Sequence record: NC_020079.1
DNA from: Escherichia phage phAPEC8
Strand: one strand, 5' to 3'
DNA: 64,000 bases
The position numbers and the translations under genes are program-made. Positions 37,180-61,470 of the stretch are shown here, one piece after another. A model generated the notes under the pieces. It did no database searches and was not told where the DNA came from. It saw nothing but the letters and a program-made list of their open reading frames with translations. Positions within the stretch are counted from its first letter, which is position 1. Every line of letters starts with the position of its first letter.

Positions 37180-38154
37180 TTAAACAGCAGCTTCTTCTTT
37201 TTCAGGGAAGATAAAGCTTGCAATAACACCAAGAGCTAATGTGCCTAGAACAATCATCAGACTTACGTTAGGGGAAATATCATGCGGGAGGAATGACCAC
37301 TTGGCATGAAGTGTTTCACCGAACGGGTGATACATAAGTTTAGCACCGACAAATACCAGAACCACAGCAACAGCTTTCTCTAAGTGAACCAGATATTTCA
37401 CAGCCACACTTAACACAAAGAAAAGTGCACGTAAACCAAGAACAGCCATCAGCATTGCAGAATAAACTAGCAGAGGTTCTTGTGTCACACCGATCACAGC
37501 CGGAACTGAATCAAAAGAGAAGACAATATCTGTAAGCTCAATAACAAACACACAAAGAAGAGCAGGAGTTGCATATTTAATACCATTCTTAATGGTGATG
37601 AACTTTTCACCATCTAGTGCATTGTGCACAGGCAGAACTTTACCTACTAAACGAACAGCCCAATGCTTAGAGTAATCAATATCCTCTTCTTCGTCACCAC
37701 CTTTGATGATAGCCACGGCAGACCAAGCTACAATCAAACCGAACAACACTTGGACCGACCAATGAAGGTTAAACAAAGCGGTCCCTGCTGCAACAAAAAT
37801 ACCTCGGAAGACAATGGCTCCTGCAATCCCCCAAAGTAAAATCTTATGTTGGAGATGTGTGCTCTTAATTCCAAAGCTTGCAAAAATTGCCATGAACACC
37901 ATCAAGTTATCTACAGAAAGACTCTTTTCCAACACATAGCCACTTAGGAAAAGCGCGGCAAACTCTTTACCATGTTCTACCCAAATGAATGCGTAATATC
38001 CTAAAGCTAAAGCAATCCAAAAAACAGACCAAAGCAAAGCAGATTTAATTCCAATTTCTTTATTCTCTTTATGACCAAAGAAATCGATACCAATAGACAA
38101 TGCTAAAATACCAACCAAAACAACTACATCAATAATGGGGAAACCAAGTTGCAT
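37180..38154 (-). CDS. terC: TerC-family integral membrane protein
   Basis: 324 aa; multiple TM helices; EKSLSVDN motif characteristic of TerC. Confidence 0.75.
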   Translation of the reverse strand: MQLGFPIIDVVVLVGILALSIGIDFFGHKENKEIGIKSALLWSVFWIALALGYYAFIWVEHGKEFAALFLSGYVLEKSLSVDNLMVFMAIFASFGIKSTHLQHKILLWGIAGAIVFRGIFVAAGTALFNLHWSVQVLFGLIVAWSAVAIIKGGDEEEDIDYSKHWAVRLVGKVLPVHNALDGEKFITIKNGIKYATPALLCVFVIELTDIVFSFDSVPAVIGVTQEPLLVYSAMLMAVLGLRALFFVLSVAVKYLVHLEKAVAVVLVFVGAKLMYHPFGETLHAKWSFLPHDISPNVSLMIVLGTLALGVIASFIFPEKEEAAV

Positions 38155-38470: not shown

Positions 38471-38944
38471 TTAAAGTTTATAAATAGTCACATCGTGACC
38501 TGTTTTTACTAAAGTTTCTTCAATCATCACTTGGATGATAGCCCAATTACCTCCAGCATGTCCAGCGCCAATCATAGGTAAGCCGATCTTACATTTTTGG
38601 TCACGGAGAAGCAAATCGTTAGCCATAGCTATTAGTGCATCGTAAAGTGCATCATAGTCCAACTGACGACCTTTAGCATTGTATCCGTAACGGTATTGCC
38701 CGTATAGATTATATACCAAAGGGTCTGATTGTTCGTCTGGCACTCCTAAACTAAAACAACCTAGTTTACTTTGATCACCAGCCATTGTGTCTAAGTCTGC
38801 TGCATATGCGTAAGGAAATGCTCGTTTGATTTGTGGGGCAATACCTGCCCCCATATTACACATACAGTTGCAACAATGAGCAATAACAGTTACTTCACCT
38901 GCTTTAGCGGCATCAATAAGATTACCTGTTTTCATTTTAAGCAT
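38471..38944 (-). CDS. Macro domain protein (ADP-ribose binding/processing)
   Basis: Start at ATG behind AAGGAG; VIAHCCNCMCNMGAGIAPQIKRAFP and IGLPMIGAGHAGGNW parallel the two macro-domain glycine-rich loops. Confidence 0.55.
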   Translation of the reverse strand: MLKMKTGNLIDAAKAGEVTVIAHCCNCMCNMGAGIAPQIKRAFPYAYAADLDTMAGDQSKLGCFSLGVPDEQSDPLVYNLYGQYRYGYNAKGRQLDYDALYDALIAMANDLLLRDQKCKIGLPMIGAGHAGGNWAIIQVMIEETLVKTGHDVTIYKL

Positions 38945-38957
38945 TTTTAGCTCCTTA

Positions 38958-39785
38958 TTACAGAATGTGTTGTTTTGTGTAACGATCCAAGAATTCAAAG
39001 TTTTCAGCATACTTTGAAATTCGGTTGTAACCTTCTCCCAAGCATCCAAAGAAAAGTTGCTCTACATAGTAATGTGGCAATTGGCTAAGAATGATTTTGA
39101 AGTCTTCATGATTTTGGCCCATAAGATACTTAATAGGACGAACAAGACACTGTGCATCACGTTCTTCATTAATCATTTTAACAAACGCTTCCGGTGTATT
39201 AATGTAGTTAAAATTCAGTTTAGCTTCGGTATCTGCTTGATTACCTTCATATTTTGCAAAATACAGGAAGTAAACATCATTTTTAACTTGATTTTCATTA
39301 AGGATCTCAATCAGTTTGTCTTCATGCGTTCCAGTGATATTTACATCATCAATGAATACAAGCTTCTTATCACCCCAGAATTCTTTGTTACAGTAGAATG
39401 TATCCCCATCAATAAGTTTCTTACGACTAGCTTTATCCAAGAAACCATAATCGTTGATATAGCTAACTTTACGATGAATAATGTCCAGTTCTGCTGAACG
39501 ACCTTGATCATATTGTGATTGCAACATATTAAAGTAATTAATAAAATGATCTGTCATCATTGTTGCAGCATTATGCACATGGTTGTAAGGAGAAGGAATG
39601 ATAACAAATTGTTCCCCAATATGTTTCATTGCCACTTGAGCAAAAAACTGAAGTGCCAATTCTTTACCCATACGACGCGCGGCTTGGTTACTACCAAATT
39701 TCAATTTTGAATAATCTTGGATATCAAAAGTAGCAGTTTCCAGGTCATCAAATTTATTTGCAAAAATTTGAGTTTGATTACGCAT
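38958..39785 (-). CDS. Phosphoribosyltransferase (type I PRTase fold) domain protein
   Basis: 275 aa; KLVFIDDVNITGTHEDK matches the PRPP-binding motif (hydrophobic-DD-x-x-TG-T). Confidence 0.55.
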   Translation of the reverse strand: MRNQTQIFANKFDDLETATFDIQDYSKLKFGSNQAARRMGKELALQFFAQVAMKHIGEQFVIIPSPYNHVHNAATMMTDHFINYFNMLQSQYDQGRSAELDIIHRKVSYINDYGFLDKASRKKLIDGDTFYCNKEFWGDKKLVFIDDVNITGTHEDKLIEILNENQVKNDVYFLYFAKYEGNQADTEAKLNFNYINTPEAFVKMINEERDAQCLVRPIKYLMGQNHEDFKIILSQLPHYYVEQLFFGCLGEGYNRISKYAENFEFLDRYTKQHIL

Positions 39786-40434
39786 TTACAATTTCTCCTC
39801 TTTTAAGTTTCTCTAGTAAGTCGTTAGGGTTCTTAATATGACAGAAGTTAAATCCTAAGTCAACACATTTTCCATCATATTCTTCACTATCGCCTACGTG
39901 CAATACTTCGTGCCCTAACAGAGGGATCGGAGAATACGTGAGCGTGCGAGCAAAGAATCGCGGATCTGGTTTACAAAGTAAAGCTTCATCCGAGAAATGG
40001 GTGAACTCAAAACAATTCCAACTATCAAACTTACAAGCACGACGCAGGATATCCCCTGATATAAAGTTGGTATTGCTCTTAATACTCAAATCATAACGTC
40101 CCGAAAGATACAGCAAGTACATCGGCAGATCCACGGCTACGTGTGGTGGAAACTTAAGGAACCACTGTTCACACTCGAAACGAAGCTTTGCAGACTTCCA
40201 AGGTGTTATCCCAAGTTCAGAACCAAGTCTTTCCCAGGCGTATGCTGCACACTCGGCTTTGCCTTGAAGTGCTGCATTATCCAGTTCCTTTTTGATCTTC
40301 TTATAAGCTGCTCTTGCTTCCACTTCCGTAATATCTCCATATTTTGCGATAGTCCAGGCTCGCATGTCTGCGTAATTGGAGTTTGCTGTGATCAGTGTGT
40401 TCCATACATCAAAAGAGATATGTTTAATAGTCAT
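39778..40434 (-). CDS. HAD-superfamily hydrolase/phosphatase-like protein
   Basis: 218 aa; N-terminal ISFDVWNTLI (nucleophile Asp motif I variant) and HVGDSEEYD (motif IV-like). Confidence 0.45.
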   Translation of the reverse strand: MTIKHISFDVWNTLITANSNYADMRAWTIAKYGDITEVEARAAYKKIKKELDNAALQGKAECAAYAWERLGSELGITPWKSAKLRFECEQWFLKFPPHVAVDLPMYLLYLSGRYDLSIKSNTNFISGDILRRACKFDSWNCFEFTHFSDEALLCKPDPRFFARTLTYSPIPLLGHEVLHVGDSEEYDGKCVDLGFNFCHIKNPNDLLEKLKRGEIVNA

Positions 40435-56407: not shown

Positions 56408-56424
56408 TAAGTTGAGATTCATTA

Positions 56425-56449
56425 AACCCGCTTCGGCGGGTTTTCTCTT
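56425..56449 (+). terminator. Rho-independent terminator
   Basis: AACCCGC-TTCG-GCGGGTT then TTCTCTT. Confidence 0.6.
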
Positions 56450-56482: not shown

Positions 56483-57667
56483 ATGGCAGCACCAAAATCA
56501 TGGGAACAATATAAAGAAGAGTGTCAACCAATAGCAGAGAGTAAGCAAATCCAAATCTTAGGATGGACGGGAGAATGGAAAGGGGTTAATACAAAACTTG
56601 ATTTGTTGTGTCATTGTGGTTATAAATGGGATACTACAAGTATTAACAGTTTTAAACGTGGTGGTGGTTGTCCTATGTGTGCAGGTCAAATTAAAGATTT
56701 AAAAACATACCTTACTGAATGTAAACCAATAGCGGAAGCTAAGGGGATTACCATCATAGGTATCGTAGAACCGTTTAAAGGTGCGCGTACGAAAATGATG
56801 CTACGTTGTAGGTATGGTCATGAATGGAATACATGCAGTTTTGATAGTTTTAAACATGGCAGTGGTTGTCTTATATGTAGGTATGAGAACACAAGGAGGT
56901 CACAAACAATACCAGACGATCAACATATTGCAGATTTCTTTTCTACAGGGAAGTTTAAGGAAGGTACTATTTTCACCAATACGGGGGAACGTAAAGGGTG
57001 TGATCCAATATGGATGGTTCAGTGTCCTGTTTGTTCTCATGATGAATATGTTAAAGCTGGACTATGTGATGGTAAGTTTTATATGACGCGTAGCAATCTT
57101 AAATATGGACACTTACCCTGCCGTTGCTCTGCATCTTATAGGTATACAGCGGAACAGATTACGTATAAAGTAAGAAAGAAAATAGAAAAGAAAGGGTATG
57201 TTTGGATAGGATGGATTACCAAACCATCTTCTATAGGTAAGTTTAAATATGTATGTAAGAGTCATGGGGAACAAAAAGGAACTGCAAACAACCTTTTAAA
57301 CATAGGACAAGGTTGTCCGCAGTGTGCTAACAAAAATCAACAACAAGCCTACATTAATTATATTTACGATGAGCAAGATATTCTCTGTGCACTGAAGTTT
57401 GGTATTGCTAATAATAGTAATCGCCGTATCAAAGAACAAAATAGTCGTAATGTGTTTACTATGAAACAGGGTCAAGTGTGGCACTTCCCTACTGTGAAGC
57501 AATGCAAAGATGCAGAAAAGCGTTGTAAGCGTGTCCTTCACACGGAAGCAGTGAGCAAATATTCTATGCCAGATGGCTACACAGAGACAGTAGAGTTATC
57601 TTGCATGGCCTCAATACAAAACATTTATAAACTTTATGGTGGAATATTACAGGAGGAAACATGTTAG
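56483..57667 (+). CDS. Tandem zinc-ribbon repeat protein, possible nuclease-like C-terminus
   Basis: 394 aa; four ~55 aa repeats each ending in a CxxC knuckle (GCPMCAGQ, GCLICRYE, CPVCSHDE, GCPQCANK); C-terminal YINYIYDEQD...KFGIANNSNRR weakly GIY-YIG-like. Confidence 0.4.
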   Translation: MAAPKSWEQYKEECQPIAESKQIQILGWTGEWKGVNTKLDLLCHCGYKWDTTSINSFKRGGGCPMCAGQIKDLKTYLTECKPIAEAKGITIIGIVEPFKGARTKMMLRCRYGHEWNTCSFDSFKHGSGCLICRYENTRRSQTIPDDQHIADFFSTGKFKEGTIFTNTGERKGCDPIWMVQCPVCSHDEYVKAGLCDGKFYMTRSNLKYGHLPCRCSASYRYTAEQITYKVRKKIEKKGYVWIGWITKPSSIGKFKYVCKSHGEQKGTANNLLNIGQGCPQCANKNQQQAYINYIYDEQDILCALKFGIANNSNRRIKEQNSRNVFTMKQGQVWHFPTVKQCKDAEKRCKRVLHTEAVSKYSMPDGYTETVELSCMASIQNIYKLYGGILQEETC

Positions 57668-58026
57668 TTGACGTTCAAATTATGCGCAACGAAAGGATGG
57701 ATTTCTTTGAAGCAGTAGAGAAACATCTGATCCGATGGGACTATGAATTTGTTCCTGCTGGATGTGGACCAGTAGAGCATTTAGCGGAAGACGATGATGT
57801 ATACATGATCATTCGTCAAGTGTACCAGACAGACCAGTGTGAAGAAACTCCTGAACTAATTTTGTTTGAGTGCAAAGATCTTGCAAAATATTTTGACTAT
57901 GGCGGAAAAGAGGGTCATAATCTCTCCAGATACAATAAACGTCTACTTATCTTAGACTACATGCGGAACAATAAACACAAACTCATCGACGCAGACGCAG
58001 TTTATGGCTACTGGTGGATGGACTAA
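57661..58026 (+). CDS. Hypothetical protein
   Basis: 121 aa ORF. Confidence 0.35.
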   Translation: MLVDVQIMRNERMDFFEAVEKHLIRWDYEFVPAGCGPVEHLAEDDDVYMIIRQVYQTDQCEETPELILFECKDLAKYFDYGGKEGHNLSRYNKRLLILDYMRNNKHKLIDADAVYGYWWMD

Positions 58027-58039
58027 CAAAGGAGAAACT

Positions 58040-58228
58040 ATGGCACGTTTAGCAGATCATGAAATCTTTAAACCTATTCTGAACCACTATGATGAACTTA
58101 AAGCAGTGTTGGATTGTTATAGAGAGGATGAAGAACGTTTGGAAGTCAATCTTAAGATAGTTCTGATGAAAGCTTTTCAAGACGGGCAAGCTAAAGTTTT
58201 AGAAGGCATGAAAAATGAGAATAACTGA
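58040..58228 (+). CDS. Small hypothetical protein
   Basis: Start at ATG behind AGGAGA. Confidence 0.3.
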   Translation: MARLADHEIFKPILNHYDELKAVLDCYREDEERLEVNLKIVLMKAFQDGQAKVLEGMKNENN

Positions 58229-58757
58229 TGAATATGTATTCTTCTTTTCACATAAAGATGTGTTTAGTAATTGGTATATTGCACCCTTTACAGAAACTGA
58301 ACCAGGTTACAATCAGACATTTAATTGTGTCGAACAATACATGATGTGGCGTAAAGCTTTGCTTTTTAATGATCACAACACTGCACAGGCTATTCTGACT
58401 CATAGTTTGATACGGAAAGATGAGAAGATCCAAGCTTATTACAAACGTATGGGTAGGGCAGTGTCAGATTTTGATAACAACGTATGGGAAGAGAACCGTG
58501 AGCGTATTGTTATGCGAGGTTTATGCTTGAAATATGTACAGAATCCAGATTTGTATGCAGACTTACACCTTTACCAATACAAAACGTTTGTTGAAGCAAG
58601 TCCTTACGATAAGGTTTACGGTATTGGAATGGGAATGTATGAACCAGGGGTGCTAAATCCGGTCAACTGGAAAGGGCAAAATCTTTTAGGTAAATATCAT
58701 AACAAACTGATCGAAATACTTTTCCCAGACAAAATACCGCAAAGACGATATTTGTGA
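58215..58757 (+). CDS. NADAR (YbiA-like, DUF1768) domain protein
   Basis: 180 aa; YVFFFSHKDVFSNWYIAPF, FNCVEQYMMWRKALLFND, GQNLLGKYHNKLIEIL match conserved NADAR blocks. Confidence 0.55.
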   Translation: MRITDEYVFFFSHKDVFSNWYIAPFTETEPGYNQTFNCVEQYMMWRKALLFNDHNTAQAILTHSLIRKDEKIQAYYKRMGRAVSDFDNNVWEENRERIVMRGLCLKYVQNPDLYADLHLYQYKTFVEASPYDKVYGIGMGMYEPGVLNPVNWKGQNLLGKYHNKLIEILFPDKIPQRRYL

Positions 58758-58812
58758 TATTTTAACTTTTTTCATTTTTAGAACAAAGGTGTCACTTTGT
58801 AGCACAGAAATA

Positions 58813-58848
58813 AGGCTCCTACAGCACCGTAGAGAGCCTGTTATTTTG
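58813..58848 (+). terminator. Rho-independent terminator ending the + strand block
   Basis: AGGCTCCTAC...GTAGAGAGCCT stem followed by GTTATTTTGT. Confidence 0.5.
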
Positions 58849-59000
58849 TCCTATACAAACCCTTATCTTTTTCAGTTTGCATCACTAGGATTCGATCTAA
58901 GTGGGTTCCTGAAGGTTTACCAATAAGATTAAAGGTTATCTCAAATTCCCACTACCTATTATCTCAAAAATCCCTCAAATTATTTAAACTTTTTAAGAAT

Positions 59001-59047
59001 TTACAAAAGTGAAAGTTGAAAACCAAAATTTAAAGTTTAGGAAAATT
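59001..59047. repeat. AT-rich direct repeat, copy 1
   Basis: ttacaaaagtgaaagttgaaaaccaaaatttaaagtttaggaaaatt; about 75% identical to the copy at 59139-59186. Confidence 0.5.
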
Positions 59048-59138
59048 ATCTTAAAATGTTAGATACAAAACAAAACTCAAAAGTCAAGGAAAATTTTAAA
59101 AATTTTGCGCGCCCACAGTATTTAAAGTTTTTTTGCTT

Positions 59139-59186
59139 TTACAAAAATGAAAGTACAAAAGCAAAATTTAAAGTTTACAAAAATTT
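59139..59186. repeat. AT-rich direct repeat, copy 2
   Basis: tttacaaaaatgaaagtacaaaagcaaaatttaaagtttacaaaaatt. Confidence 0.5.
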
Positions 59187-59223
59187 ATGCAGGTGGGAAT
59201 GAGAAGAGTTCTCATGTGGAAAT

Positions 59224-59242
59224 GCAAATGATAATGATTCGC
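59224..59242. promoter_or_regulatory. Fur-box-like palindrome 1
   Basis: gcAAATGATAATGATTcgc; 14/19 to consensus GATAATGATAATCATTATC. Confidence 0.35.
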
Positions 59243-59281
59243 ATTTAAGTTTATAAATGAGATTGATTCTTATTCAATAAG

Positions 59282-59300
59282 GTAAATGATAATCATTCTC
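59282..59300. promoter_or_regulatory. Fur-box-like palindrome 2
   Basis: gtAAATGATAATCATTctc; core AATGATAATCATT perfect, 17/19 to consensus. Confidence 0.45.
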
Positions 59301-59531
59301 ATTTAGAGAATGACGCGCAGGGGTGGTGTTTGTCTCGCGCTCCCGTGTCCCCTCGCCATGTAATAAGAATAACAGATCCAACCAGGAAAGCAAGCGATTA
59401 TTTTATCTTTACATTTCTTTACAAATATATAGCGCCCAGCCTACCGGCGATCAACCTTCCAACCAGTGCCCCTGGTATGTTAGCCCCGCCTTTACGCCGT
59501 GGGGTGGCGCTTCCTCTTCTGTATGTAAAAC

Positions 59532-59560
59532 AGTATAAGCCCGATCCCTGGGCTTGTCAA
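59532..59560 (-). promoter_or_regulatory. Strong sigma70-like promoter on - strand facing the GC-rich non-coding segment
   Basis: - strand TTGACA-N17-TATACT; the same DNA on + strand forms hairpin AAGCCC..GGGCTT followed by a T-rich run. Confidence 0.4.
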
Positions 59561-59562
59561 TA

Positions 59563-59829
59563 TTATTTTTTGTTTTCTTGCCAGGATAGGACACCTAACC
59601 AAAAATGCATGTCGCCCCGCGCCCCTGGTGGGATCTTGCTTTCCCCGCCGCCACTGCAAGCCCATAAATAACCATCAGCGAACGGATCAAAATTTTCTAT
59701 TTCTTCCACCTTATGATCGCCCAGGTTGAGAACTGTTTCAACCTTTAAGCCCGTTGCGCTTGCTACCTGGTGCACCGTGCCGCCTTGCCAGCCCAATGAG
59801 TGCATAAGGTGTAATGTAGTATTTGTCAT
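59563..59829 (-). CDS. Hypothetical protein with high-GC, host-like composition
   Basis: 88 aa ORF; GC-rich codons unlike neighbours; upstream TTGCTA-N17-TATTAT. Confidence 0.4.
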   Translation of the reverse strand: MTNTTLHLMHSLGWQGGTVHQVASATGLKVETVLNLGDHKVEEIENFDPFADGYLWACSGGGESKIPPGARGDMHFWLGVLSWQENKK

Positions 59830-59938
59830 GGTGTCGCCCTTTCTTTGTTGTGCGCCCTGGTTGGCGCGGTAGAAAGATAATAGCCCTTTCCTTTACATAT
59901 AGCAAGCAAAAAGAAAATAAAAAAGATTGAAAAAGTGG

Positions 59939-59997
59939 TTGACGTTCCTCACCTGGTAGCGTAGTATTCATCTTGTAGGGCGGCAATGGTGCCGCTC
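59939..59997 (+). promoter_or_regulatory. Promoter-hairpin cassette 1
   Basis: TTGACG-N17-TAGTAT then GGGCGGCAATGGTGCCGCTC hairpin, RBS, ATG 60017. Confidence 0.55.
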
Positions 59998-60016
59998 ACT
60001 ATTTGGAGTTAAGATC

Positions 60017-60214
60017 ATGGCAACATTGCACATTGTGGCGAAAGCTGGACAAATCAACGTAATAGTAAACGGTTTTACTGAGTTCAGTCATCCCCAGGAT
60101 GATCATGAAACGGTTTTATCTTTCATTGATTCCCTGTTAGAAATGGGAGTAATTACAGAAGACCAGCACGCTACAAAATGCAAACGCGTTAATCAAATTG
60201 CAGGAATAGAATAA
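60017..60214 (+). CDS. Early small protein
   Basis: 65 aa; RBS GGAG. Confidence 0.45.
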   Translation: MATLHIVAKAGQINVIVNGFTEFSHPQDDHETVLSFIDSLLEMGVITEDQHATKCKRVNQIAGIE

Positions 60215-60220
60215 AAAGTA

Positions 60221-60282
60221 TTGACAACAAACAACAACCTGATAAGATGTACCACATAGGGCGGCGGAATGGTCCACCGCTC
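60221..60282 (+). promoter_or_regulatory. Promoter-hairpin cassette 2
   Basis: TTGACA-N16-TAAGAT then GGGCGGCGGAATGGTCCACCGCTC. Confidence 0.55.
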
Positions 60283-60304
60283 ACAACAGAAGAGAGAAAT
60301 CATC

Positions 60305-60577
60305 ATGGCATCATATAGCGCAACAATGATCGTAGTCGGCACCACTGGTAAACCTATGAGCGGTGGCGGATCTTTCGCAAATATCAACATTGACGGGCGT
60401 TTATCCCTGGACGCAGCGATCACCGTGGCGCGGGAAACATTTAAGAAAGAATGTAAATTCAATAAACAAGATTATCTCGGTTTCGCTATTGAAAAAACCG
60501 CGCGTTTTGTTGATTATAAAAGCCCAAAAATGGTTGATACTACACTAAAAGCGCAAGATGTAGCGTTTTTGCTTTAA
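60305..60577 (+). CDS. Early small protein
   Basis: Start at ATG (MASYSAT) behind AGAAGAGAGA; the longer track ORF begins inside the hairpin. Confidence 0.45.
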   Translation: MASYSATMIVVGTTGKPMSGGGSFANINIDGRLSLDAAITVARETFKKECKFNKQDYLGFAIEKTARFVDYKSPKMVDTTLKAQDVAFLL

Positions 60578-60580
60578 GGC

Positions 60581-60635
60581 TTGACATTAACGAATAATTT
60601 GTTAATATGTTACATAAAGCGGGAATAGTTCCCGC
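60581..60635 (+). promoter_or_regulatory. Promoter-hairpin cassette 3
   Basis: TTGACA-N16-TAATAT then GCGGGAATAGTTCCCGC. Confidence 0.55.
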
Positions 60636-60653
60636 TATTTGTAAGGTGGTAGA

Positions 60654-60911
60654 ATGTTTTACATCAAATTAAAAGGTCACGTGATCGCGTTCAAAGATAA
60701 CGCTTTTTACAGATTAGCAAAATATGCGTTAATACATCCCCACTATGTTTATATAAGGGGGCGTGATGAAATAAATATCTTTGATCAAACAACATGCGAA
60801 AACATCGAGATCCGCAAGGTTGGCGTACGTGATTATCGTACATCTTTCTACCCTTGCAAGGATTCAGCAAGTCTTTTTAAAGTATGCCAATTGTTGAAAA
60901 AAGGTGGTTAA
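60654..60911 (+). CDS. Early small protein
   Basis: 85 aa; RBS AAGGTGG. Confidence 0.45.
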   Translation: MFYIKLKGHVIAFKDNAFYRLAKYALIHPHYVYIRGRDEINIFDQTTCENIEIRKVGVRDYRTSFYPCKDSASLFKVCQLLKKGG

Positions 60912-60912
60912 T

Positions 60913-61470
60913 ATGGGCCGCGAATATGTGATCCAGTCTTGGGTAAAACATGAAGCAGATGATCCGCGCATCATTCCCGATCATCTTATCGATGAATCCA
61001 CGGGATATAGCGGTGAGCAAATAGGTAACAGATTAGCACGTAGTAACGGCAACGTAAAAGCGCGTTATGTGCGCCCTGGCTGGCTGGCAAATGGTAACGC
61101 TGATTTATCCAGTGCGGAAGATGCGAGCGACGGCGCGAAAGATAATCCTTTGTACAAAGTTGATCCGGCTTTTCGTGTCCTAGATGAATACCCCAGCAAG
61201 ATAGCGGCGCTTGATGAAGCATTGGAAAGTAAGCGCATCACCTGGACCGCTTACAACATGGCAAAAAACGTACTTGATGGTAAATTGATTCAAGCTGAAA
61301 GAAAATTAGCCAAAATTGCAGCCATAGCCCAGGAGGAAGACGAGGAGACAACGGAAGAGGAAGAGTACGAAGAGATCCCGCCGTTGTTGTGTGTTGATGC
61401 TTTTCCTGATTATCAGCCGACAGAGGAAGAAAAAAGGATCGCACTAGAAAACTTTGAAAATAGTCTTTGA
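60913..61470 (+). CDS. Early protein with acidic C-terminal region
   Basis: Start at ATG (MGREYV) behind AAGGTGG; EEDEETTEEEEYEE stretch. Confidence 0.4.
   Translation: MGREYVIQSWVKHEADDPRIIPDHLIDESTGYSGEQIGNRLARSNGNVKARYVRPGWLANGNADLSSAEDASDGAKDNPLYKVDPAFRVLDEYPSKIAALDEALESKRITWTAYNMAKNVLDGKLIQAERKLAKIAAIAQEEDEETTEEEEYEEIPPLLCVDAFPDYQPTEEEKRIALENFENSL

Follow-up and report, generated by a model that had tools for sequence, protein, structure and literature searches.

The window analysed here is a stretch of 64,000 nucleotides (nt) from Escherichia phage phAPEC8 (NC_020079.1), a Phapecoctavirus (subfamily Stephanstirmvirinae) near Escherichia phage ESCO5. An earlier note, made from the letters alone, assigned a NADAR-domain protein to the open reading frame (ORF) at 58215-58757 and linked it to the processing of ADP-ribose (ADPr). 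The gene and the segments that bear on its activity are given below, with the NADAR of Phytophthora nicotianae (PnNADAR, PDB 8bau) as reference.

58215..58757, plus strand: coding sequence of the NADAR (AdfN-like) protein, stop codon included; an ATG-to-TGA ORF of 180 amino acids (aa).
58332..58334, plus strand: codon of E40, equivalent to PnNADAR E43, E. coli C7 DarG1 E88 and T4 AdfN E36 (alignments to 8bau, T4 gp30.3 and YbiA).
58353..58355, plus strand: codon of K47, equivalent to PnNADAR K50, C7 K95 and T4 K43 (alignments).
58404..58439, plus strand: clade-specific insertion of ~7 aa within residues 64-75 (...LIRKDEKIQAYY...), directly before the K77/R81 phosphate-binding helix (alignment).
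58443..58499, plus strand: segment with K77, R81, W91 and R95, equivalent to PnNADAR K75, R79, W89 and R93 (alignments).
58593..58619, plus strand: segment with E127, D132 and Y135, equivalent to PnNADAR E125, D130 and W133 (alignments).

The ATG of the gene lies 8 nt downstream of an AAGG and overlaps the end of the preceding ORF by 14 nt; in the alignment, the start M1 (MRITD...) is common to nearly all homologues. The assignment to NADAR was confirmed by Pfam search. Residues 11-161 match positions 3-154 of the 163 in the NADAR profile PF08719 (DUF1768) with an E-value of 1.8e-35 and 123 bits, the gathering cut-off being 35.1 bits, and besides NADAR no Pfam family matches the protein at E<=0.1. 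It also matches phrog_1017, a family without assigned function (E 5e-52). With NCBIfam NF053876, the equivalog model of the NADAR family anti-phage protein DS32_2, the score is 16.5 bits, below the cut-off of 240. The ORF is a real gene and not a chance reading frame, the matches being far beyond chance.

The AlphaFold2 model of the protein, computed with 39 homologues as input, is very confident, with a mean predicted local distance difference test score (pLDDT) of 95.8 and a predicted template modelling score (pTM) of 0.89, and the protein has the alpha+beta fold of NADAR. In PnNADAR, ADP-ribose is contacted by E43, K50, K75, R79, W89, R93, E125, D130 and W133 (Schuller et al. 2023, PMC11543638). 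The alignments, with the codons checked, map these contacts to E40, K47, K77, R81, W91, R95, E127, D132 and Y135. The sole change, W133 to Y, is conservative and is found throughout the Stephanstirmvirinae clade, including its active member AdfN^Bas60 (PMC11825919), which is described below. The Glu equivalent to E40 coordinates the distal ribose (PMC11543638, PMC11825919), the Lys equivalent to K47 coordinates phosphate and is essential in E. coli C7 NADAR, and K75, R79, W89 and R93 of PnNADAR contact the pyrophosphate and the adenine (PMC11543638). For hydrolysis by C7 NADAR, the residues equivalent to E43, K50 and E125 are important (PMC11543638). Absence of the conserved catalytic residues from an alignment was what the earlier note had named as evidence against its claim; E40, K47 and E127 are all present and, together with K77, W91 and D132, are invariant across the 39 homologues.

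AOT23291.1 of phage ESCO5 has the same sequence as the window protein (100% identity); at the DNA level, ESCO5 and the window are ~97.7% identical, and many Phapecoctavirus genomes show 91-96% identity to the 3-kb stretch spanning the gene. Among phapecoctaviruses the ratio of nonsynonymous to synonymous substitution rates (dN/dS) of the gene is 0.03-0.07, with dS up to ~1.5. The protein is thus maintained by strong purifying selection. A scan of IMG/VR for related loci gave 5 only; therefore, these estimates rest on GenBank relatives.

Within the NADAR superfamily, a distinction is made between DarG1, T4-type phage, YbiA-type and 'NADAR' proper proteins (PMC12945103). A neighbour-joining tree places the window protein inside NADAR proper; PnNADAR, YbiA and T4 branch further and further away, in that order. 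The residue at position 127 also differs between the types, Glu being typical of YbiA and NADAR, Asp of DarG1 and His of the T4-type NADARs. DarG1, the antitoxin of DarTG1 (E. coli C7, G. lovleyi; PDB 8bat), has the same fold and the same expected reaction, hydrolysis of guanine-N2-ADPr. The DarG1 type was nevertheless rejected on account of the missing N-terminal extension, the absence of an adjoining DarT and the presence of Glu instead of Asp at the catalytic position. The NADAR core begins at about residue 5 of 180, a Phe stands two residues before E127, and the C7 counterpart of the catalytic Glu is an Asp (D171). No DarG1 structure was among the PDB sequence-search matches of the protein, the PADLOC DarG model did not match it, and no ADP-ribosyltransferase match (Pfam, PHROG) was obtained for the neighbours of the gene, namely a CapR/T5orf172 gene, two ORFans and a non-coding region.

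AdfN^T4 (gp30.3) is likewise a phage-encoded orphan NADAR, with E36 and K43 at the positions of E40 and K47. It removes guanine-ADPr and counters DarTG1, and has His at the position of E127 (PMC11543638, PMC11825919). This difference and an identity of 18% led to rejection of the T4 type. Full activity of AdfN^T4 requires the context of a T-even infection, whereas the Bas60-type enzyme does not. PnNADAR and the stand-alone bacterial NADARs, the latter encoded on large chromosomal contigs and 42-47% identical to the window protein, are cellular proteins; only the phage clade has the insertion before the K77 helix. By sequence, the window protein is neither a DarG1-type nor a T4-type nor a typical YbiA NADAR.

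The relation to YbiA bears on the second function offered by the earlier note, metabolite recycling. The protein might be a YbiA-like housekeeping N-glycosidase that destroys reactive intermediates of the riboflavin pathway as metabolite damage control. It does match NCBIfam TIGR02464 'riboflavin biosynthesis intermediates N-glycosidase' above the cut-off (112 bits vs 73.7), and its Glu at position 127 is the residue typical of the YbiA type. However, TIGR02464 is a domain model of NADARs first found fused to riboflavin enzymes and fits other NADARs, and is therefore not specific for riboflavin activity. E. coli YbiA (PDB 2b3w), a riboflavin-intermediate N-glycosidase whose housekeeping gene belongs to a LexA-controlled operon, branches outside the phage clade. 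It is 28% identical to the window protein, against 35% for PnNADAR, and its match to the family profile is weaker (63 bits vs 125). YbiA itself hydrolyses guanine-ADPr (PMC11125620). In addition, the window protein is of a single domain, with no RibA or RibD domain detected by Pfam, and the neighbours of the gene, the only part of the phage genome examined for riboflavin genes, include none. The gene is labelled 'GTP cyclohydrolase II' in the GenBank records of ESCO5, Mt1B1_P17 and many other phages, which hints at a riboflavin role; one record notes that the label stems from 'Uncharacterized domain COG3236 / GTP cyclohydrolase II'. Identity as GTP cyclohydrolase II was rejected, NADAR being the sole Pfam match of the protein, and the label is a mis-annotation carried over from RibA-NADAR fusion proteins. 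With 28% identity to YbiA and a place in a non-YbiA branch, the protein is very improbable as a riboflavin enzyme, and metabolite recycling is the weaker of the two functions that had been offered.

The phage NADARs that defeat DarTG1 have been named AdfN (Johannesman et al., Nat Commun 2025, PMC11825919). Besides the T4 type, that study assayed AdfN^Bas60 of the BASEL phages Bas60-62 (PMC11825919), which are phi92-like phages (PMC8594841) now placed in the genus Justusliebigvirus of the same subfamily as the window phage. AdfN^Bas60 was identified through locus tag bas60_0111 in MZ501100.1 (phage PaulScherrer/Bas60), protein QXV83846.1, which is annotated as 'putative YbiA-like N-glycosidase'. 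Over 172 residues, 59% of positions are identical between this protein and that of the window (E 4e-69). The two genes are syntenic, with the same ATPase and endonuclease-like genes before them and a long intergenic region and the same small-gene series after. The NADARs of Phapecoctavirus and of the Bas60 group form one clade in the tree, and outside the phapecoctavirus NADARs the 7-residue insertion ahead of the K77 helix is found, in the homologue alignment, only in the Justusliebigvirus/Bas60 group. Owing to this identity, the synteny, the single clade and the common insertion, the two proteins are orthologues, and the window gene is, on this comparison, the Phapecoctavirus orthologue of AdfN^Bas60. 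Both are stand-alone phage NADARs of ~180 aa with the same catalytic residues, the same insertion, the Tyr and the same genome position. They differ at 41% of residues; AdfN^Bas60 also carries a loop of 7 additional residues near residue 30, and its C-terminal tail is different. The fold, the active-site residues, the orthology, the purifying selection and the gene organisation of the window NADAR are established by the analysis. The PADLOC candidate defence component PDC-M42C is matched by the window protein and AdfN^Bas60 alike (E 2e-35); bacterial relatives of the phage NADAR counter-defence enzyme are therefore found in candidate defence loci.

Plasmid-borne AdfN^Bas60 neutralised the toxicity of DarT1 in cells without infection and allowed RB69, T5 and Bas25 to form plaques again on DarTG1 hosts, with no effect on DarTG2; it removes ADP-ribose from guanine in DNA (PMC11825919). 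With the experiments of 2025 on the orthologue in the sister genus, the function has ceased to be an open question. The substrate, the guanine specificity and the in vivo role of the window protein are most likely those of the tested orthologue and of the family. It is likely to be a catalytically competent stand-alone ADP-ribosylglycohydrolase, which would hydrolyse guanine-N2-ADP-ribose on the phage DNA and act as an orphan antitoxin against DarTG1. In an infected E. coli carrying DarTG1, DarT1 would place ADP-ribose on the N2 amino group of guanine in the phage DNA, and this modification would block replication and transcription. The NADAR protein would bind the ADP-ribose through K47, K77, R81, W91 and R95 on the phosphates and adenine and through E40 and E127 on the distal ribose. 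By hydrolysing the N-glycosidic bond, it would then restore unmodified guanine and allow phage replication to resume. In such a scheme, the protein would be an orphan type IV antitoxin, the target being the modification and not the toxin. The reversal of DarT-type DNA ADP-ribosylation envisaged in the earlier note, which had named both guanine and thymine, is thus supported through the AdfN^Bas60 orthologue for guanine (DarT1). Thymine is not the expected substrate, as every NADAR tested so far, including AdfN^Bas60, fails on thymidine-ADPr and DarTG2 (PMC11825919, PMC11125620).

Several points weigh against this assignment. The literature holds no experiment on the window protein or on any Phapecoctavirus NADAR, and with 41% divergence from the tested orthologue the substrate preference in vivo could differ. 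YbiA and T4 gp30.3 hydrolyse guanine-ADPr in vitro, yet gave cells no rescue from DarT1 (PMC11125620). The evidence on AdfN^Bas60 is from ectopic expression only and not from deletion in its own phage (PMC11825919). The match to the riboflavin N-glycosidase model described above also counts on this side. The assignment is likely and no firmer than that, because in vitro activity in the superfamily does not always protect in vivo.

A broader specificity was also considered, in which the protein would be a nucleic-acid de-ADP-ribosylase that removes ADP-ribose from cytidine, from guanosine in RNA or from both, placed there by ADP-ribosyltransferases other than DarT1 of defence or competitor origin. 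DarTG1 would then be one target among several, and the idea overlaps and is compatible with an anti-DarTG1 role. The window protein belongs to a non-DarG1, non-T4 branch, nearest to PnNADAR and the stand-alone bacterial NADARs. NADARs outside the DarG1 and T4 types remove cytidine-ADPr too (PMC12945103, PMC11833690), and guanine-ADPr is removed from RNA by all NADARs tested (PMC11833690). However, no anti-phage system that ADP-ribosylates cytidine or RNA guanine is known in E. coli, and the sole known in vivo phenotype of the orthologue is anti-DarTG1. This wider role appears unlikely next to one directed at guanine-ADPr in phage DNA.

The protein could also act on, or bind, small molecules derived from ADP-ribose, either degrading or sequestering ADPr-based immune signals or inhibiting a NADase defence through ADPr binding. 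A phage NADAR, U56, reportedly binds ADPr to inhibit Retron-Eco1, which is a NADase defence; a sequence relationship of the window protein to U56 could not be established. Iyer et al. 2022 put forward the small-molecule role on the basis of context, and Johannesman et al. cite a phage NADAR (Carabias 2024) working without enzymatic activity (PMC11825919). On the other hand, the catalytic residues of the window protein are intact and under purifying selection, and its closest tested homologue acts on ADP-ribosylated DNA. Such a role, for which the analysis gave no support, is quite improbable.

Removal of guanine-ADPr as a defence against DarTG1 would have practical consequences. Collections for phage therapy and biocontrol of pathogenic E. 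coli include phapecoctaviruses, and an AdfN-type counter-defence in these phages would help to predict their host range on DarTG1 strains. The widespread 'GTP cyclohydrolase II' mis-annotation is also corrected. In itself, the assignment widens by one genus a family of phage counter-defence proteins that was characterised in 2025; the protein would be a real but expected member of it, and no new question is opened.

The more useful lead is its pairing with a second protein related to DarG and SCO6735, which raises the possibility of a combined defence against both DarTG types. The window indeed carries the second ADP-ribose-processing fold that had been claimed:

38471-38944, minus strand: macro-domain ORF (Pfam Macro, 22.3 bits vs the cut-off of 22; PADLOC DarG, E 2.7e-10).

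The best PDB matches of this protein are S. coelicolor SCO6735 (5e3b, E 1.9e-12), the T. aquaticus DarG macrodomain (5m31/5m3e, E 1.2e-6) and human TARG1 (E 5e-6). All three enzymes are listed as reversing the thymidine-ADPr made by DarT2 (PMC12945103). The catalytic Lys80 of DarG is not conserved in the window macro protein; the aligned segment of SCO6735 is likewise without Lys. SCO6735, though it lacks that Lys, removes thymidine-ADPr. The earlier note had placed the NADAR gene far from the cluster of macro and phosphoribosyltransferase (PRTase) genes; the macro ORF, which a PRTase_3 match adjoins (E 1.3e-41), is ~19 kb away on the opposite strand.

A tentative possibility is that the two enzymes form a shield, in which NADAR would remove guanine-ADPr (DarT1), possibly also cytosine-ADPr, and the macro protein thymine-ADPr (DarT2). 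The macro-type anti-DarT2 factor AdfM, described in 2026, is so far reported only from chimalliviruses, the nucleus-forming jumbo phages (PMC13309987). The macro family of the window, phrog_335 (annotated 'phosphatase'), has ~2,900 phage records, T-even phages included, and is therefore common. If the shield is real, macro-type anti-DarT factors would extend from jumbo phages to common coliphages. Around the macro gene, the reading frames at 37180-38154, 38958-39785 and 39778-40434, all on the minus strand, account for a PRTase_3 (ComF-like) protein, a weak HAD-like hydrolase match and a TerC-family membrane protein. Some Vibrio phages have the homologous macro gene beside a ribose-phosphate pyrophosphokinase gene, which hints at ADP-ribose salvage.

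The NADAR gene is the last of four co-directional genes with overlapping ends (56483-57667, 57661-58026, 58004-58228 and 58215-58757). The features that precede and follow it are these:

56483..58228, plus strand: three upstream genes overlapping in a chain into the NADAR gene (ORFs, overlaps, Pfam and PHROG matches).
56483-57667, plus strand: CapR/T5orf172 endonuclease-like gene (Pfam; PHROG 'endonuclease').
57661-58026, plus strand: ORFan of 121 aa (ORF).
58004/58040-58228, plus strand: ORFan of 59-74 aa, depending on the start (ORF).
58814..58849, plus strand: terminator-like hairpin at 58814-58838, then the U-rich tail UGUUAUUUUGU, 57 nt past the NADAR stop (RNA folding).

A strong hairpin terminator at 56424-56443 stands ahead of the four-gene block. 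The hairpin at 58814-58838 has a folding energy of -16.2 kcal/mol (z -4.2), and none of 200 shuffled sequences folds as well. It was found by folding and had been missed by a simple terminator scan because of a bulge. It is invariant in four relatives, one of which has diverged flanks. The hairpin with its tail is the probable 3' end of a transcription unit, and the genes at 56483-58228 together with the NADAR gene are probably one such unit. The scan of 58000-61000 against Rfam gave a chance-level snoRNA match only (E 0.9), and no tRNAs were found within the window.

The product of the 56483-57667 gene has 394 aa, with four CapR-homology repeats, a treble-clef zinc finger (DUF4379) and weak T5orf172/MUG113 matches. 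Relatives differ in the length of this gene (phapecoctaviruses, 999-1209 nt; Justusliebigvirus, 1194-1404 nt), and such variation is what a mobile homing-endonuclease-like gene would show. The two ORFans between it and the NADAR gene are present in Phapecoctavirus but absent at this place in Justusliebigvirus. Neither protein (121 aa and 74 aa) has a Pfam match, and both match genus-specific PHROGs only. For the 121-aa protein, which has 8 close homologues only, the AlphaFold2 model is poor (pLDDT 65.8) and unfit for structure search.

Among the records that match 57000-60000 of the window are some named 'Campylobacter phage' (B15, A150 and others) and 'Acinetobacter phage vB_AbaM_ABPW7'. In this interval they are 93-98% identical to the coliphages considered here, and their host names are questionable.

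Downstream of the hairpin, three further features were recorded:

58976-59185: A/T-rich stretch of 25-28% GC, with several weak promoter-like hexamer pairs overlapping it.
59198-59310: four copies of a 15-bp palindrome at an exact spacing of 29 bp (TGAGAAGAGTTCTCA, TGATAATGATTCGCA, TGAGATTGATTCTTA, TGATAATCATTCTCA).
59310-59900: GC-rich island of 48-51% GC, against ~37% around it.

The A/T-rich stretch, in which relatives have no annotated gene, includes a direct repeat of 72 nt (58976-59047 and 59114-59185, 82% identity) and three copies of a 29-nt unit. The arrangement of palindromes resembles a set of operators for a dimeric regulator; in phage tuntematon it is annotated only as 'repeat_region'. 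The pattern TGAKAATNATTMTCA, allowing up to 2 mismatches, has 5 matches in the window, against 1.9 expected by chance, and 4 of the 5 are in 59198-59310. Two of the copies are 1-2 mismatches away from the 7-1-7 motif of the E. coli Fur box, TGATAATnATTATCA. The GC-rich island, which may have been acquired separately, contains an 88-aa ORF on the minus strand (59563-59829; no Pfam match, 'hypothetical protein' in relatives), a promoter-like site on the same strand (59905-59877) and a two-way hairpin at 59535-59557.
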